From Takakia lepidozioides (Eukaryota > Plantae > Bryophyta): a stretch of DNA of 64,000 bases. The translations under genes were made by a program, and so were the position numbers. The stretch spans positions 34,162,001 to 34,226,000 of the forward strand of contig CM060734.1 of assembly GCA_030704615.1 (NCBI GenBank). Direction: 5' to 3'. Below the pieces are notes generated by a model. It searched no databases and was not told the origin of the DNA. It saw only the letters and a list, made by a program, of their open reading frames with translations. The stretch's first letter is position 1. The number at the start of each line of letters is the position of its first letter. Below, piece by piece: positions 16,171 to 64,000 of the stretch.

Positions 16171-16184
16171 CTCGAGAAAGATGA
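16171..16184 (+). promoter_or_regulatory. Non-tRNA primer-binding site complementary to the element's own repeat A
   Basis: CTCGAGAAAGATGA directly follows repeat A and is the reverse complement of TCATCTTTCTCGAG at 15975-15988. There is no TGG tRNA-type start. D3 shows the same arrangement. Confidence 0.8.
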
Positions 16185-17034
16185 TCTCTTACCTGTGAGT
16201 GCAAGGTAGGAGTTGAGGGTTAGCACTTGCAAGATTACCTGCGTATAAGTAGTGATTAGTTTGAGAAGCATATCATTGAATGTGACCACAAGATTCAGCG
16301 TGCCCTGAAACGCCTGGAGGATGACGATGCCAGAGCCGCCATTGTTATTGCAGTCGCTGAAGCTACCAAGTCACTAGAGGCTTTGGGGTACACAAGGAGA
16401 TACTTAAAAATGCAGCATCAAATGCTAGTTGGCACCTATGCATGATCCTTGAAGCTGGATGATCGTTTCACCAGTAAGCTTACAGAGGAGCTCTTCTGGT
16501 CTTGTGTGTCATGTCTGAAGGCTTCATTGCATACCACTGATCCTCTTTCAAAGGAACAACCGCTTGACTGTCCAGGCTTTGCAGAATCAGAAGCTTGAAG
16601 TCACAACGAACGATGATGATGATGTGGAACAGTGGGTGGAAGCTTGTCTTCCAAATTTTTGGCAGCAGATGACACTGCAGCGCGGAAAAGAATGCCTTGC
16701 TCGGAAGAAGGCTCTGATCCAACTAGTTGTGTGTATCTGTGACTTGGCAGAGGACTGGGCATAAATGACATTTGGTGGGTCTCAAAAGTGGGTCCACATC
16801 TGAACGTTGTCACTTGGGGCTGCAAGTTATCGTGATTCAGGGGTGACTCTAACTGAATCACCATTGACAAGGACAGTAGTGGCAAGTGCTGTTTAGGGAA
16901 GACACCACTGTGGACAACTTGATTCATGTGATAGAAGGCTAAATACAGCAGTGGTGGGACTAGCCAACAACCGACAAGGCAATCCAGCATGCAGTACCTG
17001 GACAGTTTCTTTTTTTTTTCAAAATGGATTGCAG

Positions 17035-17600
17035 GGATATCAGCAGATGAGAAGGCAAGACTGCTACACTGTGTTGTTGTAGGTGGTGGTCCTACAGGGG
17101 TGGAACTCAGTGGTGAGCTCAGTGACTCATCAGGAGAGACGTCTACGGCTAGTTCGGCCATGTGAAAGATTTTATCCATGTCACACTTATTGAGGCAAAG
17201 GAGATTTTTTTTCATCTTTCGATGTTCGACTCCGGGAGTACGCGACCAGGCACCTGATCAAGGGTTTGGAGGGATAAGCTGGAGGGTCTTAAATGCATAA
17301 CTGTTTTCAGACTGGGGTAAAGCTGATGCAAGATGTAGTCAAGGATGTTCTGCCAGACAAATTAGTGCTTACGGATGGGACGGAGGTGCCATACGGGCTG
17401 CTGGTTTGATCAATGGGTGTTGGATCTTCTTCCTTTGTCCACTCCTTACCTGTGAAGAAGTGCCCTGGTGGAAGCTTGGCAGTTGATCCAGTTACTAATG
17501 GAAGCCCTACCGCAAACAAAGAGTGTTGCTGAGAGACAAGGAAAGTACCTGGGCAAATCTTTGAACAAGCTGGCACAAGCAGGTGGTGGTCAGGCTGGGG
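17035..17600 (+). pseudogene. Captured fragment of a type II (NDA-type internal alternative) NAD(P)H dehydrogenase gene inside D1
   Basis: Translates with frameshifts as [55 protein letters not shown]..[intron-like, ends TTTTCAG at 17310]..[46 protein letters not shown], matching plant NDA1/NDA2 motifs. Confidence 0.85.
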
Positions 17601-18487
17601 TCCTTTTGTAGATATTCTGTGGGCCTTTAATGAGCAAGTGATCCAACCATACTCTAAGCTCAGGCGTTGAGCAGCCTTACAGGTGAATCTATAGGGTCCC
17701 GTGGGAACAATTTCTGCAGCTACACAGGGTGTGTTAGTGGCCTAAGAACAGCTTAGAAATGCTTCAGTGCAAGCCCTGGAAATTGTGGGCGTCAATGCCC
17801 GTTGCAGGAAAACATGAGAGATGCGAATTAGACCAAGTTGATGGAACTTCAAGCTGGTCTTGGCTTTGGATTCCATGCAAAGACGGCCACATCACAGCAG
17901 GCCGCCTGTCCATAAGCCATGAAGGTGCTGCGCAGTGCATCTGCTCTTGAAATCGCCCCAATTCCTGGTTTGTAGTCTCTAGGTCTCGAGGAGGCAGGCC
18001 CACGCGCAGAGAAAAGCAAATCGTGATACCCCACCCAACTGAGGTCGAGTGTTGGAATTAACGAGCTCTTGGTGCCTGGAGAATCCTGGAGGGGAACGAC
18101 CTCGGGAACTCGTAGATAACCTGGGAACAGGTTGTAATGGCAAAAGCGTTTTGGTGTTAAAAAAAAAAAAAACAAAGCCTTTTTGATCTAATTTAAATGT
18201 TTAAAGAGCCTGGTTGGTCATATCTTTGTCAAATGAGCTCCGTTTGACTCAGTTTTTGAGGGGATAGCTGCAGAAAGGGGAAATCTACCTATCTAGACCT
18301 GGTTTCTGTTTTTGGGACTCTGCTAAAAATCTATGGAATTTTAGAGTGTGAGTGTGCCATGAAAGATCCACAATCCTGTCTCTAGAACTTGTGCTGGTCT
18401 ATATTAGAGACAAATCTGTGGATGTACTCCTTGTATGGCTGGGGGAAATGAGGACGTCGTTGAAGGGCAGGTCTCTTCTCTTAGCCT

Positions 18488-19183
18488 GTGCACCAAAGGG
18501 GACAAGATTTATGTTTCCCAAGAACTCAGACTGATTTGAGTGGAGAACAGTTGGACGAGTTGATTGCATACTGGGAGTCAGGCATTAGCAGTAGACAACA
18601 GACTGCTGTAGTTGGCATTGAGGGCCTCAATATCGCCTTGGACAGTCAGAACTCTGTTGGAGCCAGCAGTTCTGCAGCTGTAGGTGAAATACCAAAGTGG
18701 GTGAAAGCTAGGCTTGGAACACAGCCAAAGACAGCCCCGGGGACCAAGGTGTTCAGTCACAAGGCCGTGGTGTACTGGAGCAGAGGAGCAGGAGCTACAC
18801 AAGTTTGTGCAATTAGACAGTGTTGCAGTCGGACACACTCTGCACAAGGCAACCACGAGCGGGGGTTCATTAGCGAGGACAAGTTTGTTCTGTTTGAAGG
18901 CGATGCAGTCATTCGCAATGAAGACACCCGCAACCGTCTCAAAGCTTTCGAGTTGAGAGACTATCAGACCCTACCTTTGTTTTCTTTAGTGTTCAGTGAG
19001 CGGGAGATAGGGGAGTATTGCTTTGTCTCTACCTGGCAGAAAGAGGAGGAGGGTTGGTTAGAGCGAGCTACTGTAGCTTGGGACAAGGTTAGTGGCAGGT
19101 TTCTGGACATAGATATACCTCCTACACCTTACCATCACGCAGAGCGAGGCACTTTGAGAGAAGTCTGGAAGTTGATAGCATAG
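18488..19183 (+). CDS. Accessory ORF of unknown function upstream of D1 gag
   Basis: 231-codon open frame with protein-like composition (YQTLPLFSLVFSEREIGEYCFVSTWQKEEEGWLERATVAWD..). Start codon uncertain; absent from D3. Confidence 0.35.
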   Translation: MHQRGQDLCFPRTQTDLSGEQLDELIAYWESGISSRQQTAVVGIEGLNIALDSQNSVGASSSAAVGEIPKWVKARLGTQPKTAPGTKVFSHKAVVYWSRGAGATQVCAIRQCCSRTHSAQGNHERGFISEDKFVLFEGDAVIRNEDTRNRLKAFELRDYQTLPLFSLVFSEREIGEYCFVSTWQKEEEGWLERATVAWDKVSGRFLDIDIPPTPYHHAERGTLREVWKLIA

Positions 19184-19703
19184 ATCAGGATTAGATCTTG
19201 CTTGGGCGAACTTCTATTCTTCCCCTCCATCTCTGTACTATTTTCATTATCTTGTACTCGTAGTTGCCAAAGCCTCTCTTGGTGGAGGCCAGTCAGTCCG
19301 GGGTTTTGGGCTGGGATATTCTGCAGGATCAGCATTGCAGCTGGATTTTGGTGTGGGGGTGTTGATGTTTTGATTTCTTGTGTTTGGATCCCCCCCAACA
19401 CCTGCATGCTTGACTGTGCGCCATGTTGGTTTTGTGTGGGCGCTTGCTTTCATAGGGATTAGGCCGGATTTGATCACCGGTCAATCCTAGAGTATGCTGT
19501 CGGTGGTGAGGCTGGAGTGATGACCAGCAAGACCACCAGTGTTTCTTCTATGGTGAGGCTGGGTTGATGACCAGCCAACCATAGGAGTTCTTGCGGTGGA
19601 TGCAGGTGCAGGTGCCCTGAGCCATTGGGATATGACCCTTAAAACTGCAACAGGTGCCCACCCGTGTCACTATTAGATTAGTACTAGAGCCTTATAGTGT
19701 CAC

Positions 19704-21734
19704 GTGGAGGAGGTGCACATTGTGAGTGTCATTACGGAGTTACCCAAGGGTGGTGAGGGGAGTACGGCTACAGGCAGTAACAGTGAGAGTGGGTTCACAA
19801 GACGAGGTATTCGGTTCAGACCACCTTCACCGCCACCCTCAATTACTGTAGAGTCAGACACAGACTCGGAGGCTTCATCAACAGGTGTGCACTTTCATTC
19901 GCCATTGTTGTGGGACGACATGGAGGAGATGTATGGAGCTACCAAGGGGCCTCGTAGGTACTCTGGAGCTGTGGGCACAATCGAGTTGGATGACTTTATC
20001 CAGGAGTTCGACAGCTGGTGTGATTTGCAGCAGATGCGCAATCCACAGCTATTCACCCCATTCATGGCGTGGAAGGGACTGTTCCAGCATTTGGAAGGCC
20101 CGCCTATGGACGATTACCACGAGTTCAGGCGAGGACATGAAGCAGAGATTGAGGAGTGGAGGATGTATTGGTCACCTGACTACGTCTCCATTACTCGAGG
20201 CACGACGCGACCAGTAGCTGCATCAGTACCAATAGCTCCCACTGCCAGCACTAGTAGTGGAGCAGGTAGTGCTGGTACTTCTGCAGGTGGTACCAGTTCA
20301 AAAGGTGCTACTACTCCTCCTGCCACAACTACAACACATGTGCCTAGATTCAACCCGGTGGTGGAGTTCTTCCAGGAGTTGCGGAGGAACTACCAAGGTG
20401 TACGGACAGAGAAGCTGCGAAGTTTGCAAGACTTCCAGCGCAAACCCAGTGAGAGCCTGCGAGAGGCGTACACTCGTATGAGGCGCTTGATAAGTGTGAC
20501 CCAAGGGGTTACTGAAGCTCAGGCAATCCAGTTTTGGTATGGAATTCTGGACAAGGAGCTCAAGAGAAGGGTGCGAGATGCAACCCTGTTACAAGCAGCC
20601 CAACCCACATTAGCAGATGTGTTTCTGCTGGCTGAGCGGATTGAGCTCAACATGGTGGAGGAGCGAGTTGTTACAATTGGATTTGGCAAGGACATGCCTG
20701 TACGGGGCACAGCTGTCAGCCCACAAGCACAAGGGACTGCCCAACAGCGTGGTCAGGGGGGCAAGGTTGCCCAGCCCAAGTTCCATGGAGCTTACAGGGG
20801 GCCTCAGGTGCAGAGGCCCGTGGCATCTTTTGCAGGCCAACAACAACCAGGGGTGATATGTTGGACATGTGGAGGACCCCATGTCAAGAGAGATTGCCCA
20901 GAGAGTGGCAGAAGGCCGGCACAAGCACAGCCTGCACAGTTGCAGTGTGGGCATTGTGGCAAGTATGGGCATGGAGATGCCCAGTGTTATGACTTGCATC
21001 CTGAGTTGCGCCCAGGCCAGTTCCAAGGGAACAATGGTGGCCGGGGGCGAGGTGGACCAGCCCAGAGAGGACGAGGTGGTCGGGCACGAGGTGCAGGCCA
21101 AGGGCAAGCTCAACATGGCCAAGGACGCGGAGGTCAGGGCGTTGATCAAGGCATGGCCAACCGGCTTCAGCAGCTAGAGCAGAGGCTCGCTGCCATGGCT
21201 ATAGCTCAGGCGGTACCGGCTCCCAGGCGGGATGGTCCACCTCCTGCTCCTGAGGGAGGAGATATGGGAGGCATGGGATTTATGTGCGGAGCAGCACTAC
21301 CACTAGAGCAGGTGGAGTCTGCTGCAGCCGTGACTCGAGGAGCAGCACGAGTTCCTGAGCCACGAGGTGCAGAGGTGGAATTGGATCCACAGCGTGGGGA
21401 GGCAAGCCGTCAGGCAAGGCTTCCTCAGTCATTCACATTGGCGGAGACTGTGTCGACGCCATCCATGGCACCTAGTTCTCGCCCGACTGTTACCGAGGCG
21501 GAGGTTACTATGCCATTGGGGAGAGCTACACGTGCAGCATTGACTCCTGCTGCCAAGGCTAGTGCGGCCGGTGTGTTATTGGGGGCAGCCACCTCTGTGT
21601 GTCAGGCCCCACTGTTCTCGGCAACAATGATTGCGACGCCGGGGGTGAGACCAGCTGCAGTGTTCAGACTAGCAGCAACACTCTGTGAGAGTGGGGAGGT
21701 CACTTCATCTTCTGCGGAGTTAGTGGAAGTGTAG
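19704..21734 (+). CDS. D1 Gag (retrotransposon gag domain, two CCHC knuckles, RGG-rich region)
   Basis: Contains LQDFQRKPSESLREAYTRMRRL..QAIQFWYGIL, and knuckles CWTCGGPHVKRDC and CGHCGKYGHGDAQC. First in-frame ATG is at 19920. The 1-nt frameshift at ~21730 is not shared with D3. Confidence 0.88.
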   Translation: MEEVHIVSVITELPKGGEGSTATGSNSESGFTRRGIRFRPPSPPPSITVESDTDSEASSTGVHFHSPLLWDDMEEMYGATKGPRRYSGAVGTIELDDFIQEFDSWCDLQQMRNPQLFTPFMAWKGLFQHLEGPPMDDYHEFRRGHEAEIEEWRMYWSPDYVSITRGTTRPVAASVPIAPTASTSSGAGSAGTSAGGTSSKGATTPPATTTTHVPRFNPVVEFFQELRRNYQGVRTEKLRSLQDFQRKPSESLREAYTRMRRLISVTQGVTEAQAIQFWYGILDKELKRRVRDATLLQAAQPTLADVFLLAERIELNMVEERVVTIGFGKDMPVRGTAVSPQAQGTAQQRGQGGKVAQPKFHGAYRGPQVQRPVASFAGQQQPGVICWTCGGPHVKRDCPESGRRPAQAQPAQLQCGHCGKYGHGDAQCYDLHPELRPGQFQGNNGGRGRGGPAQRGRGGRARGAGQGQAQHGQGRGGQGVDQGMANRLQQLEQRLAAMAIAQAVPAPRRDGPPPAPEGGDMGGMGFMCGAALPLEQVESAAAVTRGAARVPEPRGAEVELDPQRGEASRQARLPQSFTLAETVSTPSMAPSSRPTVTEAEVTMPLGRATRAALTPAAKASAAGVLLGAATSVCQAPLFSATMIATPGVRPAAVFRLAATLCESGEVTSSSAELVEV

Positions 21735-22640
21735 TGGCAGAGGGATCCTCGGATTTGAGGGTCAAGACTGCCACGGCTGCGCCATGGCAAGTTGCAGCTG
21801 CCAGGTTGACGGAGCTGCCAGCTAGGCCAGCCATTGAGCGCGCCATGGTGACACCTGGAGTTGTCTTGTTAGACAACCAGGGAGGCATTTTCACTTTGAG
21901 TGGACCGGCAGGCAAGAAGTACCGGCCACTGCGGGTCTTGTTGGACTCAGGAGCTCAGCCACTGATGTTGGGCAGAGCTGCTATTGCAGGTTTGGGCCTC
22001 ATGGAGGCGGATATGGAGCCTTGTCCTTTCCAGATACAGACATCTCTGGGAGGATCAGAGCAGGCTCGCGGCATGACACGGCATCAGTTGGCTATTAGAC
22101 TGCAGCCGGATCATCCTGTAGATGGCTCAGTGATGCGAGCCAAGGCCATTGTGACAGACGCGGTCTCTTACGATGTCCTCGTTGGTGGGGCAGTGTTATA
22201 CCCCATGGGCTTCACCCTGGATTTCTGGGAGGAGTCAGCATCCTACAGGCCTGGATGGCAGTCAGGGGATGGTCGCCGTGCACAGCTCCCTGTGACATTC
22301 ATTGGGGGTATTGCAGCTGCCCAGCGGGGCAAGATGCCAACACTAGCCGCCTTCACAGCTGCCGTTAGTTGGCCTGGAGAGTTGCTGGAAGGCAATGCCC
22401 ATGCAGAGGATGTGCCACCTCCAGCAGAGCAGGATGACATGCATGGTACGGCGGAGTTGCCTGCCATGGTTGCTCACACCCCGTTGTGGGGTACGAGCAA
22501 GGATTTGCAGCAAGCTGCTGATGGACGGGTGCAACAAGCTTGGGAAGAAGCTTTTGTACCGTCAGGAGAGGAGGAGAGTGCGGTGATTGCACCAGGGCCA
22601 CCTCAGTTGTCGCCATTGGACACCACACCTCTTGTGGGCA
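21734..22640 (+). CDS. D1 aspartic protease region (frameshifted continuation of the polyprotein)
   Basis: RVLLDSGAQPLM active-site motif and a distal YDVLVGG..L motif. Confidence 0.85.
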
Positions 22641-22647
22641 GCGGCCG

Positions 22648-23903
22648 GATGAAGGCATTTGCCTTCTGGACTTGTTTGGCGGGATCAGCACCGGATTGGC
22701 TGCTGTGCTACAGGCAGATGTGCGGGTAAGGCGTTACCTGTATGTGGAGAGGGATGAGACTGCACGACGCGTCTCACTGCGCCATGTGGCTCAGTTGGTA
22801 CAGCAGTACCCTGACTTGTTGCCTGTGTCTGCAGTTCGTGGATACCAACAAGCCTTGCCAGCAGACATTTCCTTGTTGGGGGCGCAAGATTTGGAGCAGG
22901 TTGGCTCCATTGATCTGATAGTGGCAGGTTGGCCCTGCCAAGGGCATTCATCAGCCGGGCATGGCAATGGATTGCGAGACTCGAGGACGGGTCTGTTTTG
23001 GGAGATGGTGCGGATTTTGCGCTGCTTGCAGCTTCATCAAGCTGTATCTCCAGCATACATCTTGGAGAATGTACCATTGATGGGTGATTCTCGGGCCAGG
23101 GTGATGGCCAGTGTGCATCAAGTCCGGTCGTGGCTTGGGTCAGCAGTGTTGCTGGATGCAACTGCAGTGGGGTCACGGGCTCATCGTCCACGACTATGGT
23201 GGACTAACTTGATGCCACCCGCACTGCTCAAGCGTGCATTTGATGGGGTGCAGCGGCCAGCACACCTCACCGTGGATGGCATTTTGGACACAGGAAGGCA
23301 GTCTCAACGTGTGAGACACGATGACCGTTCGCCTTTGGCCGTGGTCAACAGGGTGGGTCAACCACGAGCAGCATTACCTACACTGCTCAGCTTCCCGGAT
23401 CCCATGCTTTTCGGGATGGTGGACCTGGCCTCCTGTGGGATGCTCAGTTGCAGCAGTTAGTGGAGCCTAATGCCGACGAGCGAGAGCGGGCTATGGGGTT
23501 TTCCACTGGGACCACGGTGGTGCCTTCTCTTTCTGAGGCATCACGTCGTCAGGTGTTGGGGCAAGCAATGGATCTCAATTGCTTGACCTGGATTGTCAGC
23601 TTGGCTATGGCTGAGCAACGTAGAGTGCGGAGTGCACTTCCCTTGACGGTCTCTCTGCCTACCGAGACGGTACAGGCAGCGAGTGGGGGCGAGCCGGTGA
23701 GGACCACGAGGTGTAGACATCCATGGCACATGTGGGAGGTGCTCGAGGTTCAGAGGGAGTTGGCAGCGAAGGCAGCTGTGATGGATGAGGTTGGGGATTC
23801 TTCTCGGGATGAGGAGGTTCTCAATGATGAGATGATGGGGCAGGATGAGGCCTTGTCATTGACTGAGCAGGAAGGGGGTACTGCTCAAGAGGTTGCAGCA
23901 TAG
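22648..23903 (+). CDS. D1 C5-cytosine DNA methyltransferase domain (one frameshift at ~23397)
   Basis: Motif I LDLFGGISTG; II YVERD; IV AGWPCQGHS (catalytic PC); V GLRDSRTGLF; VI ILENVP; VIII AHRPRLWWTN; IX EPNADERERAMGF; X RRQVLGQAMD. Confidence 0.93.
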
Positions 23904-24025
23904 CAACCACGGGACGCGTCCTCTACCTCTAAGCCCACTGGACTTAAGGTTGCAGTTACGGAGGACAATTGGGAGCCTGACATCCCATTGTCACCGGAGG
24001 AGAGAGACGACGTATACGGCGGTTC

Positions 24026-26374
24026 CTGAGGGCTTATAGGAATTGCTTTGCCTTCAGTTTGAAGGACTTGGGAGCACTGAAGGGTCAAGAGATCCGTATT
24101 GAGTTGGCCACTGACACGCCAATCTTTCGGAGACCCTATAGATACAGTGACATGGAGAGGTCTTTGATTCAGATGAGGACTCAAGATCTCTGGGAGGCAG
24201 GTTTGGTGGAGCTCTCTGGTGGAGAGTATGCTTCAGCCACAGTGATGCCAGCTAAGAAGGATGTCTATGGCAATTGGACGGAGAGACGTATGTGCGGTGA
24301 TTACCGGCCTGTAAATCGTCAGACCAAGTCCGATAGGTATGCCATGCCAACACCAGAGGAGATCTTTGATGCCATTGGGCATTCCAAGGTCTTTAGCACG
24401 TTGGATTTACGATCCGGATATCACCAGTTGCCGATCAAGGAGGCGGATAAGCAAAAGACGGCATTCTGGGGGATCAATGAGCACGGGAAGGATTGCCTAT
24501 ACCAGTGGCGGTTCTTACCATTTGGGCTTAAAAACGCTCCCGCTGAGTTTCAAAGAGTCATGGACAGGATTCTAGCAGGGGTGGAGTTTGCTCGGTGCTA
24601 CATAGATGACATCATCATCTTTAGTGCTACGGTGGAGGAGCATGAGAGACACCTTCAGGGGGTATTTGAGCGCTTGAGGACGCACGGATTGAAGTTACAT
24701 CCGGGCAAGTGCAAGTTTTTCCACAACCAGATTGAGTATCTGGGTCACATGATATATCCTGGAGGATTGGGGGTACAGCAGACTAAGGTAGAGTCCATTG
24801 CACAGGTTCCACGCCCCACGGATGTGAGCCGAGTTCGAGCTTTCATGGGGTTAGCAAACTATTACAGACGGTTTGTTAAGGGATTTAGTGCCATTGCAAA
24901 GGCTCTAACCAGGCTGACCAAGGTGGACCAGGAGTGGCAGTGGGAAGATGAGCAAGAACAAGCTTTTCAAGAGCTCAAGGCGAGGTTGACCTCGGCGCCC
25001 ATCTTGAGACGACCTATCAGGGGGCGTCCTTTTCAGCTGCATACAGATTGGAGCATGCTGGGGCTTGGAGCGGTGCTCACACAGGTGGATGATGAGGGAA
25101 GAGAGTTCGTAGTGGCTTATGCTAGCCGCTCGAACAATGCTGCAGAGTCTAAGTATAGCTCATATGAGGGAGAATGCTTAGCTGCAGTGTGGGCCGTGGC
25201 ACACTTCAGGTGCTATTTATACGGCAATCTCTTCACCCTTGTCACGGATCACCAACCACTCAAGTGGTTGATGGAGTCAGACAAGCTTACGGGGAAGCTT
25301 GCACGGTGGGCACTCATCCTTCAAGAGTATGACTTTCAGGTGGTGCATCGACCGGGTTTGGTCAATCGCAATGCAGATGGGTTGAGTCGCAATCCATGCA
25401 CGAGCCAGCAGGATGACACTGGAGCTCGGTGGCATGGTGAGACGGACGAGGAGATGGTGCCCGGATGGCATGCATCTGCATTTCTGTGTATCTTGGCAGC
25501 GGAAGGCCAGGTTGGACCTGCAACAGGGATGACTGTGGATCAAGTGTCTGAGGACCCTGAGGCCAGCAATGAGCAAGGTGGCGCCAAAGATATACATGAG
25601 GATTCAGCTGTGTTGGACTATCTTCGCACTGGAGACACGGCAGCCACTGTGACTGCCAAGGAGAGGGATCGGATCCTACAACGAGCCAAGAGGTTCAAGT
25701 GGGAGGGGACACACCTGCTCCGAGTGTGGGAGGATGGTCGAGTGAGGATTGTGCCTCACCCAACACAGCGGGCACGGTTAGTGCGGCATGCCCACGAGGA
25801 GTTGGGGCATTTTGGGGTGCGACGCACCCATAGCCTACTGCAGGGGCAGTATTGGTGGCGTGGTATGCACACAGAGGTGCAACAATTTGTGGCTAGGTGC
25901 ATGGTGTGTGACAGGGTGCGTGCTTCATTCAACGCCCCTACTCCACAATTGCACCCTCTTCCGATCATGGGATTGGGCTACAGGTGGAGTCTTGACTTCG
26001 CACGGCCGTTGCCACTGACCATGCGCCACAACAAGTACGTGTTGGTGATGGTGGAGCACTTCTCCAAGTGGATTGAATTGGTTCCATTGCCTGATAAGGC
26101 TAGTGAGGGAGCTGCGTATGCATTCTTGGATTGTGTGCTTAGCCGATTCGGTGCTCCAGCTGAGGTACTCACGGACCAAGGGAGAGAGTTCTTGGGGGAG
26201 TTTCAGGCTTTGTGTGACAAGGCCTTGATAGACCACCGCACCACTTCTCGGGATCATCCTGAGGCCGATGGCTTGGCAGAGAGAGTTGTTCAGACAGTAA
26301 AGAGGGGTTTGCGCAAGTATGGCTTGCAGATGGTTCCAGATGGGGATTGGTTATGTCCACAATGCATTGGATAG
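24026..26374 (+). CDS. D1 Pol: reverse transcriptase, RNase H, integrase, and the C-terminal remnant of a PHD finger
   Basis: RT motifs [34 protein letters not shown] motifs LHTDWS, EGECLA, VTDHQPL. IN motifs HEELGH..CMVC, SLDF, TDQG, AER. Ends VPDGDWLCPQC. Confidence 0.95.
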   Translation: MRAYRNCFAFSLKDLGALKGQEIRIELATDTPIFRRPYRYSDMERSLIQMRTQDLWEAGLVELSGGEYASATVMPAKKDVYGNWTERRMCGDYRPVNRQTKSDRYAMPTPEEIFDAIGHSKVFSTLDLRSGYHQLPIKEADKQKTAFWGINEHGKDCLYQWRFLPFGLKNAPAEFQRVMDRILAGVEFARCYIDDIIIFSATVEEHERHLQGVFERLRTHGLKLHPGKCKFFHNQIEYLGHMIYPGGLGVQQTKVESIAQVPRPTDVSRVRAFMGLANYYRRFVKGFSAIAKALTRLTKVDQEWQWEDEQEQAFQELKARLTSAPILRRPIRGRPFQLHTDWSMLGLGAVLTQVDDEGREFVVAYASRSNNAAESKYSSYEGECLAAVWAVAHFRCYLYGNLFTLVTDHQPLKWLMESDKLTGKLARWALILQEYDFQVVHRPGLVNRNADGLSRNPCTSQQDDTGARWHGETDEEMVPGWHASAFLCILAAEGQVGPATGMTVDQVSEDPEASNEQGGAKDIHEDSAVLDYLRTGDTAATVTAKERDRILQRAKRFKWEGTHLLRVWEDGRVRIVPHPTQRARLVRHAHEELGHFGVRRTHSLLQGQYWWRGMHTEVQQFVARCMVCDRVRASFNAPTPQLHPLPIMGLGYRWSLDFARPLPLTMRHNKYVLVMVEHFSKWIELVPLPDKASEGAAYAFLDCVLSRFGAPAEVLTDQGREFLGEFQALCDKALIDHRTTSRDHPEADGLAERVVQTVKRGLRKYGLQMVPDGDWLCPQCIG

Positions 26375-26618
26375 TGGGAGTGGATACAACCATGGGAGGC
26401 TAACAAGCAACGCAAGGCCCAGCTACAGGAGACCTTGAATACACGAAGTCCTGGCTCAAGTTCACAGATTGCAAGACGGCGACTAACGATGGGGCTACTC
26501 TTGTACCCGGCCTCTTGGTCTATAGAGTTTGAGTGCGATAGGGACAGTGATACAGGACTTAGTACGGCTATGGCTATTACGTCTTGTAGCTATCTGGAGG
26601 TAGAGGGACCTATCCACC

Positions 26619-26632
26619 AGCTAGGGGGGCGA
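26619..26632 (+). promoter_or_regulatory. D1 polypurine tract
   Basis: AGCTAGGGGGGCGA immediately precedes repeat B. The equivalent lies at 39692-39704 (minus) in D2. Confidence 0.75.
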
Positions 26633-27154
26633 TTGTGGTAAACTACTTTATTGTGCATATATGTGTGGTGTGGTTTGGACAGCGATGTAGTTGTGTAGCG
26701 ATATGTATGCGCACGACAGCTGTCAAGTTAAATAAGCACAGTGTGAAAACAGCTAGAATAAAACTAGTTATTTGTATTTAACACTTGGATTTAGGTCAAG
26801 TGTTAAATCAGGTGTCAAGTTTAGTTTGACACCTGGTCCGTCTTATCTTCACGAGAGCGGCAGTCGCGCGGCTCATCTTTCTCGAGTTGAGCCTGCGCGA
26901 CCGAGCTCCTGCATGTGTTTAGATTTGAGTGTGCTTATGTAGGGGTACATGTTGTTGTGGGGTGGAGTCCCCATAGCTTGGGGTGCCCCTGGCTCGACTA
27001 CTATTTTCTAAGAGTGATGGTTTGGTTTTCATGTTTTGTGTCACAATGTGTTCGTTGGATTTCTATCATTGTGGTAAACTACTTTATTGTGCATATATGT
27101 GTGGTGTGGTTTGGACAGCGATGTAGTTGTGTAGCGATATGTATGCGCACGACA
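26633..27154 (+). repeat. D1 3' terminal block B(86 bp)-GC-A(348 bp)-B(86 bp)
   Basis: The two B copies are identical (TTGTGGTAAAC...GCGCACGACA). The B/A junction GACAGCTGTC is a perfect palindrome; the A/B junction is TATCA|TTGTGG. Confidence 0.95.
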
Positions 27155-39021: not shown

Positions 39022-41475
39022 TGTCGTGCGCATACATATCGCTACACAACTACATTGCTGTCCAAAACCACACAACATATGTGCACACCACAGTATACCA
39101 CTAGTCCACCACTAGTCCAGCCACTAGTCCAACCACTAGGCTGCCACTAGTCAGTCACTAGGCTGCCCACTATGGCAGTTACTAGTCCACCACAATGATA
39201 AAGAAGAAGAATACAAGTACAAGCTCATGCGAGCTCACAAAGCTGAAGCATAAACTCATGCATATATAAACTCATCACTCAAATACAAGTCAAGCCAAGT
39301 GCACTCCACGCCATGGGGAATCCACACTACGGCGCCATAGCTAGGCGCGGTGAGGCTCAACTCGAGACAGATGAGCCTCCCGCGCTTGCCGTGAAGATGA
39401 CCACCTCAGGGCCTAAATCTGCCTTGACCCCTGATTTGACACTTGGGCCAATCCCAAATGTCAATATGTAAAAGCTAGCTATTTCCTAGCTAGTTCACAC
39501 TAGTGGTGAAATAACTTGACAACTACCATGCGCATACATATCGCTACACAACTACATCGCTGTCCAAAAACCACACAACACATGTGCACACCACACACTA
39601 GTATACCACCAGTCCACCACTAGTCCAACCACTAGGCTGCCACTAGTCAGTCGCTAGGCTGCCTACTATGGTAGTCACTAGTCCACCATAATCGCCCCCT
39701 AGCTGGTGCTTAGGTCCCTCTAAGTCCAAATAGCCACAAGATGTGATAGTGACTGTAGCCTCACTAAGTCCTCCACCACTGTCCCTACTACAGTCAAACT
39801 CGATAGATCAAGAGGCCGGGTGCAAGAGTTGCCCCATCGTCAGTCGCCGTCTTGCAACCTGTGAACTTGAGCCTGGGATCTCGTGTATTGACTCCTATGA
39901 GCTCGGCCCCATATGTCTTGCTAGTTGCCACTAGTCATATCTACTACCACTATCCCAAGCAGTGTGGACATAACCAATTTCCATCAGGAACCCTCTCAAG
40001 AGGTGGTGTCAAGCATCCCATGTGCCCAACCTCTTGAGCATTGATCACACACCAACATGGTGGTTGCCCCTTTGGCAGACCCACAGAGCATGCACCTCAA
40101 ACCTGCAGGTACCACTGCCAAGTTTGGGTCAACTCTATCATCGACATTGAGGTGACATGGCGCACAATTACCCACATGGTCTTTCCAAATCATGTCATCC
40201 TGACCCTCCAAGATCAGGACTCCTGAGGGCAACACCTCTCAAACCCTCAGAATAACACGCCCTGCAGTGACATCCAGGGTCGTAGGAGTAGAGTGTTGCA
40301 AATAAACATAGTCACCAGGGCTAAACCTCCGAACCCCAAGACGATATCCTCCACCACGTATAGTGGCATACCTCAACATATCACGGTGTTGTGCAATGGC
40401 AAGGTTCTCAAAAGCCATGGGCATGACTTTCTTGAACAACTCTGCACGCTGATCACATGCACGTACCCATATGTCCGGATCGTCAAGGTTAAGGACTTGA
40501 GCAGTGTCTCTATGAATGGCTGTAGGCAAATCCGGCTCTCGGCCAAAGAGAAAAAAATATGGTGAGAAGGAGGCAAGTGATGCTTGTTTGCTGAACCGAT
40601 AGCCCATGGCTAACCAAGGTACCTGAAGATCCCAATCTCCTAGGTGTCATTTCTGCAAGCCATACTTGCGCAAACCTCTCTTCGCCGTCTGAACAACTCT
40701 CTCTGCCAAGCCATCGGCCTCAGGATGATCCCGAGAAGTGGTGCGGTGGTCTATCAAAGTTTTATCACATAAAGCCTGAAACTCCCCCAAGAACTCTCTC
40801 ACTTGGTCCGTGAGTACCTCAGCTAGAGCACCGAATCGGCTAAGCACACGATCCAAGAATACATATGTAGCCCCCTCACTAGCCTTGTTAGGCAATGGAA
40901 CCAACTCAATCCACTTGGAGAAGTGTTCCACCATCACCAACACATATCTGTGGTGGCGCATCGTCAGTGGCAACGGTCGTGCGAAGTCAAGACTCCATCT
41001 GTAGCTCAATCCCATGATTGGTAAAGGATGCAACTGTGGTGTAGGGGCGTTGAATGAAGCACGCACCCTATCACACACCATACACCTAGCCACGAACCGT
41101 TGCACCTCTGTGTGCATACCACGCCACCAATACTGCCCCTGCAGTAAACTGTGAGTGTGTCGCACTCCAAAATGCCCCAACTCCTAATGGGCATGCCGCA
41201 CTAATCGTGCACGCTGTGTTGGGTGAGGCACGATCCTCACCCGACCATTCTCCCACACTCGAAGCAGCTGTATCCCCTCCCACTTCAACCTCTTGGCTCA
41301 TTGCAGGATCCGATCCCTCTCCTTGGCAGTCACAGTGGCTGCCATGTCTCCCGTGCGGAGGTAGTCCAACACAGCCGAATCCTCATGTATATCTCTGGCA
41401 CCACCTGGCTCATCACTAGCCTCAGGGTCCTTAGACACTCCGTCTACAGTTATCCCTGTTGTAGGTCCAACCTGA
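39022..41475 (-). mobile_element. Element D2, 3' part (DNMT-Gypsy family): integrase, PHD finger, PPT, B-A-B terminus
   Basis: B at 39022-39195, A at 39196-39521, 2-bp spacer, B at 39524-39691, then PPT. The integrase ORF 40647-41180 is nearly identical to D1. The IN C-terminus and PHD span ~39951-40646. Confidence 0.9.
39951..40100 (-). pseudogene. PHD finger at the C-terminus of D2 integrase (1-nt frameshift)
   Basis: After removing one G: CMLCGSAKGATTMLVCDQCSRGWHMGCLTPPLERVPDGNWLCPHC, a canonical C4HC3 finger with W two residues before the last CxxC. Confidence 0.88.
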
Positions 41476-49525: not shown

Positions 49526-49757
49526 TGTCAAGTTATTTTACCACTAGTGTGAAGTTAGCTAGAAAATAGCTAGCTTTTATATATTGACATTTGGGATTGA
49601 CCCAAGTATCAATCCAAGGGCCAATACATGTTTGGGCACCTGACGTTGTTATCTTCACGGCAGATCGCGGTGGGCTCATCTTTCTCGAGTTGAGCCTCAC
49701 CACGTCTAGCTATGGCGCCGTAGTGTGGATTCCCCATGGCGTGGGGTGCACTTGGCT
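49526..49757 (+). mobile_element. Element D4: truncated repeat A of the DNMT-Gypsy family, inserted in the D2-type leader
   Basis: Begins TGTCAAGTTATTTTACCACTAGT with no B upstream, contains GCTCATCTTTCTCGAGTTGAGCC, and is fused at CTTGGCT/CCTGGCT to an unrelated RT. Confidence 0.85.
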
Positions 49758-56802: not shown

Positions 56803-58769
56803 CACACCCCTACCAACAGGGAGTCGATGTCCTCATCGGCTTGTCCATTTTGTGGAAACAAACATCCAAGTTGTGGCGTCCCACATCAAGGAGTTGTTTC
56901 CGTACCATGGCGTCCCATGTGTCAGTTATTTACCACTAGTGTGAAACTAGCTAGGAAATAGCTAGCTTTACATATTGACATTTGGGATTGGCCCAAGTGT
57001 CAATCCAGGGGTCAAAGCAGATTTAGGCCCTGGAGTGGTTATCTTCACGGCAAGCGCGGGGAGGCTCATCTTTCTCGAGTTGAGCCTCACCGCGCCTAGC
57101 TATGGCGCCGTAGTGTGGATTCCCCATGGTGTGGGGTGCACTTGGCTTGACTTGTATTTGAGTGATGAGGTTATATATGCATGAGTTTATGCTTCAGCTT
57201 TGTGAGCTCGCATGAGCTTGTTTGTATTCTTCTTCTTATCACTCGAGAAAGATGAGCTCGTATCTATGAGTGCTAGATACGAGTTAGTTGTAGCACTTGT
57301 GGTTTTGCTTGAGAATGAGAGAAACCAAGTTGTTATGCAAGAGCACCGTGGAGCTCTTGGTTGTTAGAAGCGGAGGCGATGTGGGTTATTACGAGGTGGT
57401 AAACCTTGGCATTCGATCTTCAGCTTCAGAGATGAAAGCACCATACTGTAGGTAATTCCAGAGCACCTTGATGGTTTCAGATTGTGTACATGCATGAGCA
57501 AGCACGATTGGAAGAGGACCAGTCAAGAGCAGGTTATAGTGGCTTTGGTGGCAAAGCTGAGAACTGGACTTGGGAATGCGAGCTTTGTGTGAAGGATTGC
57601 AAGACCAAGCGAAAGGGCTGATTTGGCTTGGGGCAAATCAGTGCACTTTGTGGAGTATGGTGAGATTGGGTTTCAATCTCGAGCTTCAGCATTGAGAGGG
57701 CTCTTGTCATGGCAAGAGCAGGGCTGGAACAGGAGCTAAGAGGTGCGGCAAGGCCATGGAATGTGCACCTAGGGTTTCAGAGCTTGGAAGAAGAGCTCTT
57801 GCACCACAAGAGAAGTGTCTTGTGGCTGGAAATGTAAGCCTTAGGGTTTCAGGAGCTTGGCAAAGGCTGGAGTGCTTAGTCTTGTCTTAGAGAGCATCAA
57901 GGAGCCAAGGAGCCAAGATAGGGGGCTGATATCTCTTGTGTGAAGAGGTTGCATGTGTGGAGCATGTATTCAGCTCATTGAAGCTTCCATCTTCAAGCTT
58001 GGAGGGCAAGCAAGGAAGAGGGAAGGGCTGACTTCCCTTATGTGAGGGCAATGTATGTGTGGAGCATGCTATCAGCCTGGTGAAGGCTTGCACTTTTAGG
58101 TGTGGGAGTGCAAGAAAGGAAGGAAGGGGCTGGTTTCCCTGTAGGGCATGTAGAGCATGCTTTCAGCCTGCTGAAGCTTGTATTTCAGGTTTGTGGGTGC
58201 AAGAAATGAAGCAAAGGAGCTGATTCTCTTATGGTGAGAGTGGGGCATGTGTGGAGCATGCCTTCAGCCCATTGAGGCTCTTGTTTTCAAGCCTTAGAGA
58301 GCTAGAACGGAAGGTCTAGGGCTGGTTTCCACTTGGAGTGAAAGAAAAGCACTTGTAGGGCCTATGTGAGTTGGGGTTTCAACTTCAAGCTTGAAGGGAG
58401 CGCAACTCTTGAAGCAACAGGTGTAGAGGGCTGGAATAGGCTCTAAGACAGATGCTATGGCCAAGGAGAGTGCTTGAATGAATGAGTGCTCACAAGGGCT
58501 GGGAACCAGCAGGGCTTGGTTGTTTGCCATTGAGTTTAGTGGCGTGTTTGGGGAGGCTAAGTGAGAAAGAAGGCTTGGTTTGTGGCAACCACCTCATGGC
58601 TTAGGGCTACTATGGTGGTGTGTGGGAGCCGAAAGAGCAAGGATACCTTGCTGATTTCCTCACAGCCACCATAGCTCGGTGGAAAGAAGCCTAGAGTCCA
58701 AGAGACACAAACCCTAGCTTGGCGTGGCTAAACCCTTGGAGAAATGGCTAAACTGCAGAGCGGCCCCAA

Positions 58770-59310
58770 GCTGTGTGCTGTGACTGAGGCCTGTTGTGAC
58801 AAAATGAGCTGTGAGCTGTGGCCCAAGCCAAACAGGCTGTGACGGGCCCTGTGGGCCAGGCTGTGACCAGGCCTGTGATGACGGGCTGTGGGCCTGTGAT
58901 GTTGTGTGAGCTGTGACGGGCTGTGACAGGCTGTGATGGGGCTGTGAAGGCTGTGTGACAAAGGGCGCTGTGACAGGCCGGGCAGGCTGTTCTGATGGGG
59001 CTGTGACAGGCTGTGCCCCGACGGGCTGTGCTGTGACAGGCTGTGAGGCTGTGATGTACCTGTGACGGGCCTGTGCTGTGACAGGCTGTGAGGGCTGTTG
59101 GCTGTGAGGCTGTGGGCGGCTGTGTGAGAGGCTGTGACAGGCTGTGCCCCCTGTGACAGTGACAGGCTGTGGGCCTGTGAGGGCTGTGTGGGGCTGTGAG
59201 GCTGTGAGGGGCTGTGACAGGCCGTGCCCCGGGCCTGTTGTGAGGTGAGTGACAGGCTGTTGGCTGGCCGGACTGTGACGGCTGACCAGTGAGCTGTGGG
59301 CCTGTGCTGG
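58770..59310. repeat. Degenerate (GGCTGTGAC)n minisatellite in the D3 leader
   Basis: CTGTG-core units; complement of 48240-48975. Confidence 0.85.
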
Positions 59311-60009
59311 TTGTGGTGGCCCGTGTTGACCTGTGGACGGCCTGTGCTGACTCGTGGAGGCACTGGTGGACTGCCTAAGGACTGGCATGTGGGAAGGCCG
59401 AATTTTGAAGCTCGTGGAGGGCGGTTTGAGGAGTATCTTCATGATATTCCCATGGTCATGCAAGTGAGAAGAGAGGAGAGGAGAGTGTTGGGATGAGGCA
59501 TGCTGGGGTTAGGCATTGCTTTAGCTTCTCTTCCTCGTAGTTTCCACCCTCTCATTAGGCCAAGACCTTTCCGTAGGTGGAGGCAAGAGTCAGTCCGGGT
59601 TTGGGCTGGGGTGTCCTTGCAGGAGCAACACCGTGGAGTTGTTTTTGGTGTGGGGGAGTTGTCGTTCTGATTTCTTGTGTTTGGATCCCCTCCATACCTG
59701 CATGCTTGACTGTGCGCCATGCTAGTTTTGTGTGGGCGCTTGTTTTATAGGTGATTGGTCCGGATTTGATCACCGGCCAGTCCTAGAGCATGCTGTCGAT
59801 GGTGAGGCTGGGTGATGACCAGCCAGACCATCATTGTTTCTCCTGTGGTGAGGTTGGAGGTGATGACCAGCCAACCATAGGAGTGCTTGCGGTGGATGCA
59901 GGTACAGGTGTAGGCTATGTTAGGAACTTAGTATTCCAAACCATAAGCCGCAACAGGTCTCTACCCGGTTACCTTGTGGAGAGGGGGTTAGGGACATGTT
60001 CATGACCGG

Positions 60010-62880
60010 TTGAGTGTCAACACGGAGGTGCCACTAGTTGCTGGGGACAGTGCCGGTTCGAGCACTAGCGATACTAGTGGGTACACGAGACGAGGTGTGC
60101 GGTTTAGGCCACCTTCACCTCCTGTGTCTTCTACGGAAGGTTCTGATTCGGATTGTGAATCAGGAGGACTCATACCGGCGGTGCAAGTTGTTTCTTTGCC
60201 ATTGTTGTGGGACACAATGGAGGAGATGTATGGAGCTACCAAGGGGCCACGAAGGTACTCTGGGGCGGTGGGCACCATCGAGTTGGATGATTTTATCCAA
60301 GAGTTTGATAGTTGGTGTGATTTGCAGCAAATGCGCAATCCACAACTATTTACGCCTTTCATGGCATGGAAGGGCTGTTTCAGCACCTTGAGGGGCCGCC
60401 TATGGATGATTACCATGAGTTCAGGCGGGGGCATGAGGTTGAGATCGAGGAGTGGAGGATGTACTGGTCACCCGACTATGTCTCCATCACTAGGGGCACT
60501 AGAGCCACGAGGGCAGTGGCTACACCTGCCGCTGCACCGGCAGCTTCAGCAAGCAGCAGTGGGACTGGTGGTACAGTAGCTACGACGTCCACCCAAGCCA
60601 CTACCGCACCAGCACTAGCACCCGTGCCTGCCTTCAACCCTGTTGTGGAGTTCTTCGAAGAGTTGAGAGGGAACTACCAAGGGGTGAGGACAGAGAAGTT
60701 GCGGAGCTTGCAAGAGTTCCAACGGAAAGCCGACCGAGAGCTTGAGGGAGGCTTTCACTCGCATGAGGCGCTTGATAAATGTAACCCAAGGGGTTACGGA
60801 AGCTCAGGCAGTCCAATTCTGGTATGGGATATTGGACAAGGAGCTGAGGAGAAGGGTGCGGGATGCAACTCTCCTACAAGCGGCCCAACCCACCTTAGCA
60901 AATGTGTTTTTGCTGGCAGAGCGGATAGAGCTCAACATGGTGGAGGAACGAGTGGTCATGGTGGGATTTGCTAAGGAGACACCACGGGGTAGTGGTGCTC
61001 CTAGCCAACCACTACCTCAACGTGCTCAAGGCAACAAGGGGGCTCAGGTGAAGCTCAGGGAAGGGCAGAGAGGACCTCAGATGCAGGGGTCTCTCCCTTC
61101 ATTTGCTGGCCAACAACGGGCGGATGTGGTGTGCTGGACATGTGGAGGACCCCATGTCAAGAAGGATTGCCCAGAGGGAGGCAAAGGGCCGGCACATGCA
61201 CAGCCTGCACAGTTGCAGTGTGGGCATTGGCAAGCAACACGGGCATGGAGGCCCAGTGTTATGGTTTGCATCCTGAGTTGCGCCCAGGCCAGTTCCAAGG
61301 GAACAATGGTGGCCGGGGCGAGGTGGAGCAGCCCAGAGAGGACGAGGTGGCCAGCCACGAGGCAGGCCAAGGGCAAGCTCAACGTGGCCAAGGACGCGGA
61401 GGTCAGGGTGTTGACCAAGGCATGGCCAACCGGCTTCAGCAGCTAGAGCAGAGGCTCGCTGCCATGGCTACAGCTCAGGTGGTACCGGCTCTAAGGCCGG
61501 ATGGTCCACCTCCTGCTCCTGAGGGAGGAGATATGGGAGGCATGGGATTCATGTGTGGAGCAGCACTACCACTAGTGCAGGTGGAGTCTGCTGCAGCCGT
61601 GACTCGAGGAGCAGCACGAGTTCCTGAGCCACGAGGTGCAGAGGTGGAGTTGGATCCACAGCGTGGGGAGGCAAGCCGTCAGGCTAGGCTTCCTCAGTCA
61701 TTCACATTGGCGGAGACAGTGTCGACGCCATCCATGGCACCTAGTTCTCGCCCGACTGTTACCGAGGCGGAGGTACTATGCCATTGGGGAGAGCTACGGG
61801 TAGCACCACTACCTAGTGTTGCCAAGGCTACGGCAGCTAGTGTGCTGCTAGGAGCGGCCACATCTGTGTGCCAGGCTCCATTGTTCTCGGCTACCATGAT
61901 TGCGACGCCGGGGGTAAGACCAGCTGAGGTGTTCAGGCTGGCAGCTACACTCTGTGAGAGGGGAGGTTACTTCATCTTCTGCGGAGATAGTGGGAGGTGT
62001 AGTGCCGGAGGGATCCTCGGATTTGAGGGTCAAGACTGCCACGGCGGCGCCATGGCAAGCTGCAGCTGCCAGGTTGATGGAGCTGCCAGCTAGGCCAGCC
62101 ATTGAGCGCGCCATGGTGACCTGGAGTTGTCATGTTAGACAACCAGGATGGCATTTTCTGTTTGAGTGGACCGGCAGGCAAGAGGTACCGGCCACTGCGG
62201 TCTTGTTGGACTCGGGAGCTCAGCCACTGATGCTGGGCAGAGCTGCTATTGCAGGCTTGGGCCTCACGGAGGCGGATATGGAGCCTTGTCCTTTCCAGAT
62301 ACAGACGTCTCTGGGAGGATCGGAGCAGGCTCGGGGCATGACACGGCGTGAGTTGGCTATCAGACTACGGCCGGATCACCCTACAGATGGCTCAGTGATG
62401 CGAGCCAAGGCCATTGTGACAGACGCAGTCTCATACGATGTCCTGGTTGGTGGGGCAGTGTTGTACCCCATGGGCTTCACCCTGGATTTTTGGGAGGAGT
62501 CAGCTTCCTATAGGCCTGCATGGCAGTCAGGGGAGGGCCGGCGTGTGCAGCTCCCTGTGACGTTCATAGGAGGAGTTGCGGTTGCCCAGCGAGGCAAGAT
62601 GCCGACACTAGCAGCATTCACAGCGGCAGTGAGTTGGCCTAGAGAGTTGCTTGAGGGCAATGCTCATTCAGAGGATGTACCACCTCGGGAGAGCAGGATG
62701 ACATGTATGGTATGGCGGAGTTGCCTACCATGGTTGCTCAGACTCCATTGTGGGGCACGAGCAAGGATTTGCAGCGGGATGCTGATCGACGGGTGCAACA
62801 AGCCTGGGTGGAGGCTTTTGTACCGTCAGGAGAGGAGGAGAGTGTGGGATTGCACCAGGACCACCTCAATTGTCTCCATT
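60010..62880 (+). pseudogene. D3 gag-protease (several 1-nt frameshifts)
   Basis: MEEMYGATKGPRRYSG (ATG at 60217), CWTCGGPHVKKDC and VLLDSGAQPLM, spread over ORFs 60010, 60366, 60742, 61131 and 61954. Confidence 0.88.
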
Positions 62881-62910
62881 GGACACCCACCTATTGTGTG
62901 GCAGTATCCG

Positions 62911-63870
62911 GATGAAGGCATTTGTCTTCTGGACTTGTTTGGCGGGATCAGCACCGGATTGGCTGCTGTGTTACAGGCAGGTGTACGAGTTCGGCGTTAC
63001 CTGTATGTGGAGAGGGATGAGACTGCACGACGCGTTTCACTTCGCCATGTTGCTCAGTTGGTGCAGCGGTACCCTGTTGTTGTCGGTGTCTGCAATTCGT
63101 GGATATCAGCAGGCCTTGCCAGCAGACATTTCGTTGCTGGGGGCGCAGGATTTGGAGCGGGTTGGCTCCATTGATCTGGTAGTGGCAGGTTGGCCCTGCC
63201 AAGGGCATTCATCAGCCGGGCATGGCAATGGATTGCGAGACTCGAGGTCGGGTCTGTTTTGGGAGATGGTGCGGGTTTTGCGCCACTTGCAGCTTCATCA
63301 AGCTGTATCTCCAGCATACATCTTGGAGAATGTGCCACTGATGGGCGATTCTCGGGCCAGGGTGATGGCCAGTGTGCATCAAGTCCGGTCGTGGCTTGGG
63401 TCAGCAGTGTTGCTAGATGCAGCTACAGTGGGGTCACGGGCTCATCGTCCACGGCTATGGTGGACTAACTTGATGCCACCCGCACTGCTCAAGCGTGCAT
63501 TTGATGGGGGGGTGCAGCGGCCAGCACATCTCACAGTGGATAACATTCTGGACACAGGGAGGCAGTCTCAACGTGTGAGACACGATGACCGTTCGCCTTT
63601 GGCAGTGGTCAACAAGGTGGGTCAACCACGAGCAGCATTACCTACACTGCTCAGCTTCCCAGGATCGCATGCTTTCCGGGATAGTGGACCTGGCCTCCTG
63701 TGGGATGCTCAGTTGCAGCAGTTAGTGGAGCCTAATGCTGACGAGCGTGAGCGGGCAATGGGTTTTACCACTGGTACCACGGCGGTGTCGTCTCTTTCTG
63801 AGGCATCACGTCGTCAAGTGTTGGGGCAAGCAATGGATCTCAATTGCTTGACCTGGATTATCAGCTTGGC
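62911..63870 (+). CDS. D3 C5-cytosine DNA methyltransferase domain (one frameshift at ~63075)
   Basis: LDLFGGISTG, YVERD, AGWPCQGHS, ILENVP, AHRPRLWWTN, ERERAMGF and RRQVLGQAMD. Confidence 0.92.
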
Positions 63871-64000
63871 TCTGGCTGAGCAACGCAGAGTGCGGAATAC
63901 TTCCCTCAATGGTCTCTCTGCCTACCGACGGTACAGGCAGTGAGTGGGGGCGAGCATATGAGGACCACGGGGTGCATGCATCCATGGCACACGTGGGAGG

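Follow-up and report, generated by a model that had tools for sequence, protein, structure and literature searches.

Chromodomains that guide insertion are the textbook example of chromatin reading by a retrotransposon. In the window (the whole 64-kb stretch of DNA that was analysed), the integrase of a decayed Gypsy copy ends in a PHD finger, and related copies encode a C5 cytosine methyltransferase (DNMT). The locus raises the question of what such a finger does for the integrase, and whether reader and methyltransferase work as one unit. Judged from sequence, the four copies of the window (D1, D2, D3 and D4) are best explained, at a probability of about 0.55, as decayed Ty3/Gypsy elements like KnitGypsy-Dnmt3, in which the PHD would tether the integrase to the N-terminus of histone H3 and the DNMT would act at another step.

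The PHD finger at the end of the D2 integrase

D2 is read on the reverse strand, and the following features were assigned to it.

40650..41474 (-), RNase H-integrase linker, H2C2 zinc domain and rve core, with three premature stops
40125..40646 (-), integrase C-terminal region: helical part, SH3-like beta domain and CAPCH linker (secondary structure from the P0035 model)
39959..40094 (-), PHD finger (C4HC3) at the pol end, PF00628 36.4 bits, one-base frameshift near 40025
B about 39692-39524, A 39521-39196, B 39195-39022 (-), 3' terminal repeats B-A-B

D2 begins at about 41474, where a 5' truncation cuts into the linker between RNase H and integrase; it contains neither DNMT nor RT. Four premature stops in total interrupt its integrase region, including one at 40239-40241 within the C-terminal region. 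All eight C4HC3 ligands of the finger are found at 39959-40094 (-), directly after the integrase C-terminal domain, and pol ends two residues past the PHD, with its stop at 39950-39952 (-). The ligands are split over two frames by a one-base shift near 40025, C1-C4 lying in one frame and the His with C5-C7 in the next. Both halves separately match adjacent parts of PF00628 (profile 1-21, E 0.022; profile 24-47, E 2.7e-5). With X placed at the breaks to give one continuous reading (P0003), the PF00628 search proposed by the initial annotation was positive at 36.4 bits (E 5.2e-9), far beyond chance and against a Pfam gathering cut-off of 24 bits. The full C4HC3 finger described there is therefore a true PHD with its eight ligands, but the string quoted for it is no single-frame translation.

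Contigs of related copies with a one-base indel relative to the window at 40025 numbered 10, 24, 1 and 2 in four public runs from three samples, and the frameshift thus belongs to the D2 copy or its assembly and not to the family. Contig depth over the finger does not equal copy number, and PHD and integrase core were not ranked by it. A chimeric assembly was ruled out as the origin of the finger, since relatives carry it intact and in frame. Among loci L031, L034, L073 and L074, the dN/dS of the PHD was 0.05-0.10 in five of six pairs, the sixth being saturated, with 0.04-0.05 for RT as a comparison value. The PHD at the integrase C-terminus is a true domain kept under purifying selection; the finger of D2 itself is now a dead relic. 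A conserved Cys/His motif (CAPCH) is situated just upstream of the finger, in the integrase C-terminal linker. No copy in the 64-kb window combines an intact DNMT with an intact PHD.

Element layout, in-frame stop and position among Ty3/Gypsy elements

The DNMT is found in D1 and D4, which like D3 are on the forward strand.

15823..27154 (+), D1, both ends present: termini TG...CA, 4-bp TSD GCGG, layout A-coding-B-A-B
15823..16170 (+), D1 repeat A at the 5' end, sharing 98.9% identity with the A at 26721-27068
19698..22288 (+), D1 gag with aspartic protease; reading frame shifted, Pfam matches weak
22645..23700 (+), D1 DNMT3-like C5 cytosine methyltransferase domain, PF00145 E 2e-13
23901..23909 (+), D1 conserved stop TAG, then CAACCA (CARYYA), candidate readthrough site
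23981..26329 (+), D1 RT, RNase H, integrase H2C2 and rve core
26330..26374 (+), D1 PHD-tail remnant (VPDGDWLCPQC), in-frame fusion to the integrase core
26634..27154 (+), D1 3' repeats: B 26634-26718, GC, A 26721-27068, B 27070-27154, with a purine-rich tract before them
49526..49757 (+), D3, repeat A fragment
56920..64000 (+), D4: repeat A (56920-57241), then gag, protease and a DNMT that is frameshifted; the window ends before RT

The coding order is gag, protease, DNMT, (stop), RT, RNase H, integrase and PHD. Motifs I, IV (PC), VI (ENV) and VIII are present in the DNMT of D1, which has a frameshift near 23397 and finds its best PDB matches in DNMT3A (E 1e-8). D1 had been said to retain the last part of the finger. 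The residues are indeed there at 26330-26374, but as the remnant left by an in-frame deletion that removed about 660 nt and fused integrase core and PHD tail at 3 nt of microhomology. The region from the pol stop to repeat B (26375-26630 in D1, 39700-39949 in D2) is 79% identical between the two copies; in D1 it is open for about 90 codons, and a small extra ORF is possible.

The layout of D1 recurs in locus L024. A 4-bp TSD was found in all three copies with both ends (GCGG in D1, AAGG in L024, CACA in L016), one of the three showing the motif NCGN. By eye, the bases after repeat A are CTC instead of TGG in D1, D4 and L024, and no TGG primer-binding start was found after the 5' repeat A of D1. 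Repeats A and B each start with TG and end with CA (26620-27154; L024 10238-10805; L074 2311-2884), a purine tract precedes B, and the internal B-A joint CA-GC-TG is a near-palindrome like a two-LTR circle junction. These repeat ends and the B-A joint suggest a DIRS-like regeneration of ends that would feed the DDE integrase without a tRNA primer. Membership of Phygy, a non-chromovirus lineage of REXdb with a 4-bp TSD NCGN, a tRNA-Trp primer and no extra domain (PMC6317226), was rejected by structure, as no tRNA-Trp primer site follows the 5' LTR and an extra domain is present; the two are set apart on the basis of that published description.

Named relatives of the family come from liverworts, mosses and Coleochaete. 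For the DNMT they include Calypogeia (72% identity), Marchantia (56-74%) and Sphagnum (42-54%), while a Pol relative was found in Coleochaete scutata. Taken together with the WRKY gene of the window, which points to a plant, these relatives suggest that the host is a land plant without seeds. Loci L073-L076 stem from bins titled cyanobacterium, Halorubrum and Mollicutes, and are probably mis-binned eukaryotic contigs. Viral contigs gave 45 pattern matches, none of which was confirmed as a relative.

An in-frame stop stands at the DNMT-RT junction in 24 of the 25 loci covering it (L001, L031, L033, L034, L073 and 19 more), L047 being the one without it. Its context is TAG-CARYYA in five of the 24, TAG/TAA-CAACCC in 18 and TAG-TAG-CCA in one; the 18 CAACCC junctions, seven of them with TAA, are non-independent members of one subfamily of about 90% identity. 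DNMT and RT are in the same frame, as also seen in the single uninterrupted ORFs of P0061 and P0107. In L031 and L073, a gag-PR-DNMT ORF and a single stop are followed by an in-frame RT-RH-IN-PHD ORF of 1047 aa, and L034 has the same junction. The offset from stop to RT varies by subfamily (246, 255 or 267 nt) with the frame kept, and Met or Val codons occur near the start of ORF2, which could also be initiated separately.

A stop followed by CARYYA is a consensus readthrough signal in which the C at +4 is the most important base (PMC5397192), the TMV stop context is read through in planta (PMC2754532), and in-frame gag-pol stops are known from other retrotransposons, e.g. Tca2. With its TAG-CARYYA-type context, the stop at the DNMT-RT junction is likely read through; no description of a stop after the DNMT was found in the literature searched. 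Leaky readthrough would yield much Gag-PR-DNMT and little Pol, so that the DNMT would be made at the level of Gag and the PHD only with Pol. The DNMT would then be packaged at Gag-like levels and could methylate new cDNA, a role that has been proposed for DIRS-encoded DNMTs (PMC5890265). The observed/expected CpG ratio is 0.45-0.55 in D1, D2 and D4 and no different in the left part of the window (0.51), which gives no sign of self-methylation in these copies.

The PHD had also been described as replacing the chromodomain usual at the integrase end. This is true of position only. In RT-RNase H trees, whose references are search matches labelled by Pfam, neither curated nor taken from REXdb, the family forms one clade (SH 99-100) outside the clade of eight plant chromovirus rows (support 100). 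Nesting inside these sampled plant chromoviruses was rejected twice in an alignment of 35 rows (AU p 0.0003 and 0.0055), and a sister position to them was not (AU p 0.37). No PF00385 chromodomain match was obtained in the 31 proteins searched. The PHD is in the chromodomain's position, and descent from a chromodomain-bearing ancestor is not implied.

Two further Gypsy proteins, P0307 and P0311, have the PHD between RNase H and integrase, P0311 with a Dam domain as well; they group beside the family in two of three trees (FastTree 94 and 97), the third giving no resolution. In P0069, P0246, P0273 and P0308, a domain after the PHD carries the motifs DPF/W..G.G and (T/C)SP(P/W/H/L)F and has no Pfam match; by eye we take it to resemble an amino (N6/N4) methyltransferase. 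P0026, P0029 and P0066-P0069 contain what is presumably a Tudor-like barrel, also with no Pfam match.

Ligand of the finger and its relation to the DNMT

The initial annotation regarded the finger as a reader of the H3 tail that steers integration into K4-unmethylated chromatin. H3-tail reading agrees with its nearest solved sequence relatives, which include KDM5B PHD1 (E 8e-11), ATXR5 (E 4e-10) and KDM5A PHD1, all binding unmodified H3. A model of the intact relative P0035 has a pLDDT of 85-92 over the finger (pTM 0.35 overall); the finger adopts the PHD fold, at 0.5-1.4 A rmsd from ATXR5, BAZ2A and DPF fingers, and superposes on the ATXR5 PHD-H3 structure at 0.9 A.

The binding pocket was scored on 17 fingers of the window's subclade, with residue roles taken from PMC4225485, PMC5499861 and PMC3241642. 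Residues L, P, G and W of the H3 Ala1 pocket stand at the positions of KDM5B L325, P347, G349 and W351, the Trp being conserved in 17/17, the Pro in 16/17 and the Gly in 15/17 fingers. The Arg2-binding Asp after C3 is kept in 16 of the 17. K4me0 specificity, the second half of the claim, is not borne out in the same way, as an acid at the KDM5B D308 position was found in only two of the 17 fingers, D2 having Ala. The subclade lacks the acidic cluster before C1 (two of 17), and the second Arg2 acid (Asp after C4) is present in none. ATXR5 reads K4me0 without a D308-type acid and excludes methylated K4 by backbone carbonyls alone (PMC4225485, PMC5499861), so a K4me0 mechanism is still conceivable in the subclade. 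By analogy with ATXR5, binding of the H3 N-terminus that disfavours K4me3 is our best guess, and given the net basic charge and the lost acids, the affinity for H3 may be low.

The same losses can be read differently. The finger of the window's subclade could be no histone reader at all and instead serve a structural function in the integrase, or bind DNA or a host protein. Its net charge (+2.1 on average in the 17 fingers, against -4.0 in 42 other fingers of the family), the loss of acidic residues and the CAPCH motif just upstream would suit such a role, and some PHD fingers are known to bind non-histone proteins (PMC3241642). However, 15-17 of the 17 fingers retain the residues of the Ala1 pocket and the Asp after C3, and in the P0035 model the finger is not confidently packed against the C-terminal domain of the integrase, which at a pTM of 0.35 is weak evidence. 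We consider a non-histone finger improbable, though a serious competitor.

Reading of another histone state (K4me1/2, K9me or K14ac), with insertion elsewhere and possibly near genes, is the least probable of the alternatives. Close matches also include CHD4 PHD2 and the DPF/MOZ fingers, sensors of K9 and K14 marks, and a host gene for a WRKY transcription factor (PF03106; 32925-36481, +) is situated between D1 and D2, no more than 6 kb from either. Such a reading is opposed by the lack of an aromatic cage, Gly replacing the cage Trp two residues before the His in 17/17 fingers, and by the presence of a single finger and no tandem. Under the favoured reading, the PHD would likely stay on the integrase and tether it to the H3 N-terminus; it could thereby make integration at H3K4me3 promoters less frequent, through steric fit and not through an acidic K4 clamp.

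Insertion sites in the window had been brought forward in favour of targeting to repeats. D4 does start inside another element, in integrase-like sequence, and D3 adjoins an RT fragment; that D1 abuts an element could not be confirmed, since no protein-coding TE lies directly at either of its ends, the closest being a fragment of RNase H some 700 bp off. When the two D1 flanks were joined and searched, no repeated element split by D1 was found in the window. By an interval tally about 55% of the window is TE-derived, and TE neighbours are therefore expected by chance; with four copies in such a TE-rich window, the nested-insertion argument was dropped. A tandem-repeat-rich segment occurs twice in opposite orientation with about 75% identity (47964-49525, adjoining D3, and 58226-59554, inside the leader of D4). 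Nested Gypsy fragments within integrase fragments of another element occupy 51000-56919, and a chromovirus-like gag-PR-RT-RH lies at 53053-55459 between inverted 740-bp repeats (51928-52664 and 56081-56802).

That reader and DNMT occur in one retroelement, as initially proposed, is borne out across the family. A metagenome scan with the DNMT alone as query gave 72 loci, of which L001-L048 were analysed and L049-L072 dropped as weak (E 1e-13 or worse). In these 48 of 72 loci, the PHD was found in 10/10 of those reaching past the integrase, L021 and L022 being one insertion and eight of the ten forming one subfamily of about 90% identity. DNMT, RT, integrase and PHD were identified in one protein by Pfam in P0026, P0029, P0061 and P0093, and by a local DNMT profile in P0066, P0068, P0069, P0089, P0107 and P0112. 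Among the best 150 RT-RNase H representatives, 17 had a family-like integrase, 15 of them with the PHD. Absence of the PHD from DNMT-bearing copies had been named as evidence against the idea; it was seen only in P0202, where a DNMT and an integrase with SH3-like end occur with no PHD, and this gene model looks chimeric. Given P0202, the finger may be dispensable. P0308 is a full-length gag-PR-RT-RH-IN-PHD ORF with no C5-DNMT, whereas P0230 ends too early for a PHD to be scored. The two domains are thus separable, and both PHD-only and DNMT-only relatives exist.

The analogy with DNMT3, whose ADD reader acts with its catalytic domain, was, unlike the co-occurrence, not supported. According to it, the PHD would be an H3K4me0-specific reader coupled to the DNMT, and the element would both target and methylate K4-unmethylated chromatin. 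In its favour, the domains occur together in most whole elements, P0107 and P0112 are single-ORF relatives, and the closest PDB matches of the finger are K4me0 readers. One subclade (P0026, P0029 and P0093; SH support 99-100) has the order RT-RH-DNMT-IN-PHD, in which the DNMT lies between RNase H and integrase, nearer the PHD, and the fingers are more acidic. In D1 and P0107 the DNMT is placed between protease and RT, and the two positions imply one relocation or two captures. Against the analogy, a Pfam search found no ADD or PWWP domain on the DNMT. Some 1000 codons separate the DNMT from the PHD downstream of it, with the conserved in-frame stop, RT, RNase H and integrase in between. In the window's subclade the stop would leave most DNMT molecules without a PHD, the D308-type acid is missing in 15/17 fingers, and P0308 and P0202 each have one domain without the other. 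DNMT3-like coupling of the PHD to the DNMT is therefore unlikely, more so than a finger with no histone ligand.

Known systems and consequences

PHD-bearing Gypsy elements, DNMT3-Gypsy elements and elements combining a reader with a writer have each been published. Like D1, KnitGypsy-Dnmt3 of Klebsormidium nitens (PMC5890265) has a DNMT3-like domain in the Gypsy polyprotein region, and combines DIRS-type A-coding-B-A-B repeats with a Gypsy domain set and DDE integrase; the likeness is drawn from its published description. It corresponds to the "streptophytes (Gypsy-DNMT3)" of bioRxiv 10.64898/2026.05.21.726589. The term "PHD" occurs 0 times in the main text and text supplements of PMC5890265, though Fig. 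4c may still draw one, and its section on KnitGypsy-Dnmt3 mentions no readthrough stop. Neither an integrase-terminal PHD nor a readthrough stop in Gypsy-DNMT3 was found in the literature; figures, supplements or Repbase may show them.

PHD fingers have been called widespread in retrotransposons (PMC6673714, bioRxiv 10.1101/2021.11.30.470311). In Chlamydomonas, the Gypsy element REM1 carries one (Perez-Alegre 2005, as cited in PMC6673714 and PMC9940879). Gypsy-7a_cRei of Chlamydomonas likewise has a PHD in its polyprotein, and chromatin-guided insertion was proposed for it; its insertions in intergenic DNA exceed expectation 2.6-fold (PMC9940879). Unlike the post-integrase finger described here, its PHD lies between RH and INT, as in P0307 and P0311, and the legend lists no C5-DNMT (PMC9940879). 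A PHD-guided integrase has been proposed in print, and no test of it was found in the papers examined. EpiLTRs also unite a chromatin reader with one or more DNA methyltransferases in one LTR retrotransposon, but unlike the D1 family those of Cymbomonas and Euglena have a chromodomain, DAM and a DNMT that is sister to DNMT4, and their acquisition was called distinct from Gypsy-DNMT3 (bioRxiv 10.64898/2026.05.21.726589).

In chromoviruses a small reader is likewise placed at the integrase end, past an SH3-like domain (PMC6673714, bioRxiv 10.1101/2021.11.30.470311); the chromodomain fold differs from that of the PHD, the mark read is likely different, and the family is not nested among the sampled plant members. 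KDM5B PHD1 and the ATXR5 PHD share with the subclade finger the Ala1 pocket, the first Arg2 acid and the lack of a cage (PMC4225485, PMC5499861), whereas equivalents of D308, E321 or the second Arg2 acid are not found in the subclade finger. In DNMT3A/B the ADD reader stands beside the catalytic domain in one chain, while in the family the PHD lies past the stop and RT-RH-IN.

A wider picture can be offered tentatively, with less confidence than the identification of the copies and of the tether. The family may be an old Ty3 clade of the green lineage, apart from the chromoviruses, whose integrase ends in a PHD that senses H3K4 and serves as a tether, much as the chromodomain does in chromoviruses. 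A readthrough stop of the TMV type (TAG-CARYYA) would, in the land-plant branch, have placed a DNMT3-like enzyme in the abundant Gag product, giving particles with many DNMT molecules that could deliver pre-methylated cDNA into K4-unmethylated chromatin.

Transposon methylases were stated to be absent from land plants such as tracheophytes (PMC6338049), and the bryophyte DNMT matches narrow this statement. The naturally intact fingers and the named Marchantia members make the idea of PHD-guided integration testable. The conserved stop between DNMT and RT predicts Gag-like levels of the DNMT, which bears on the question why retrotransposons carry cytosine methyltransferases.
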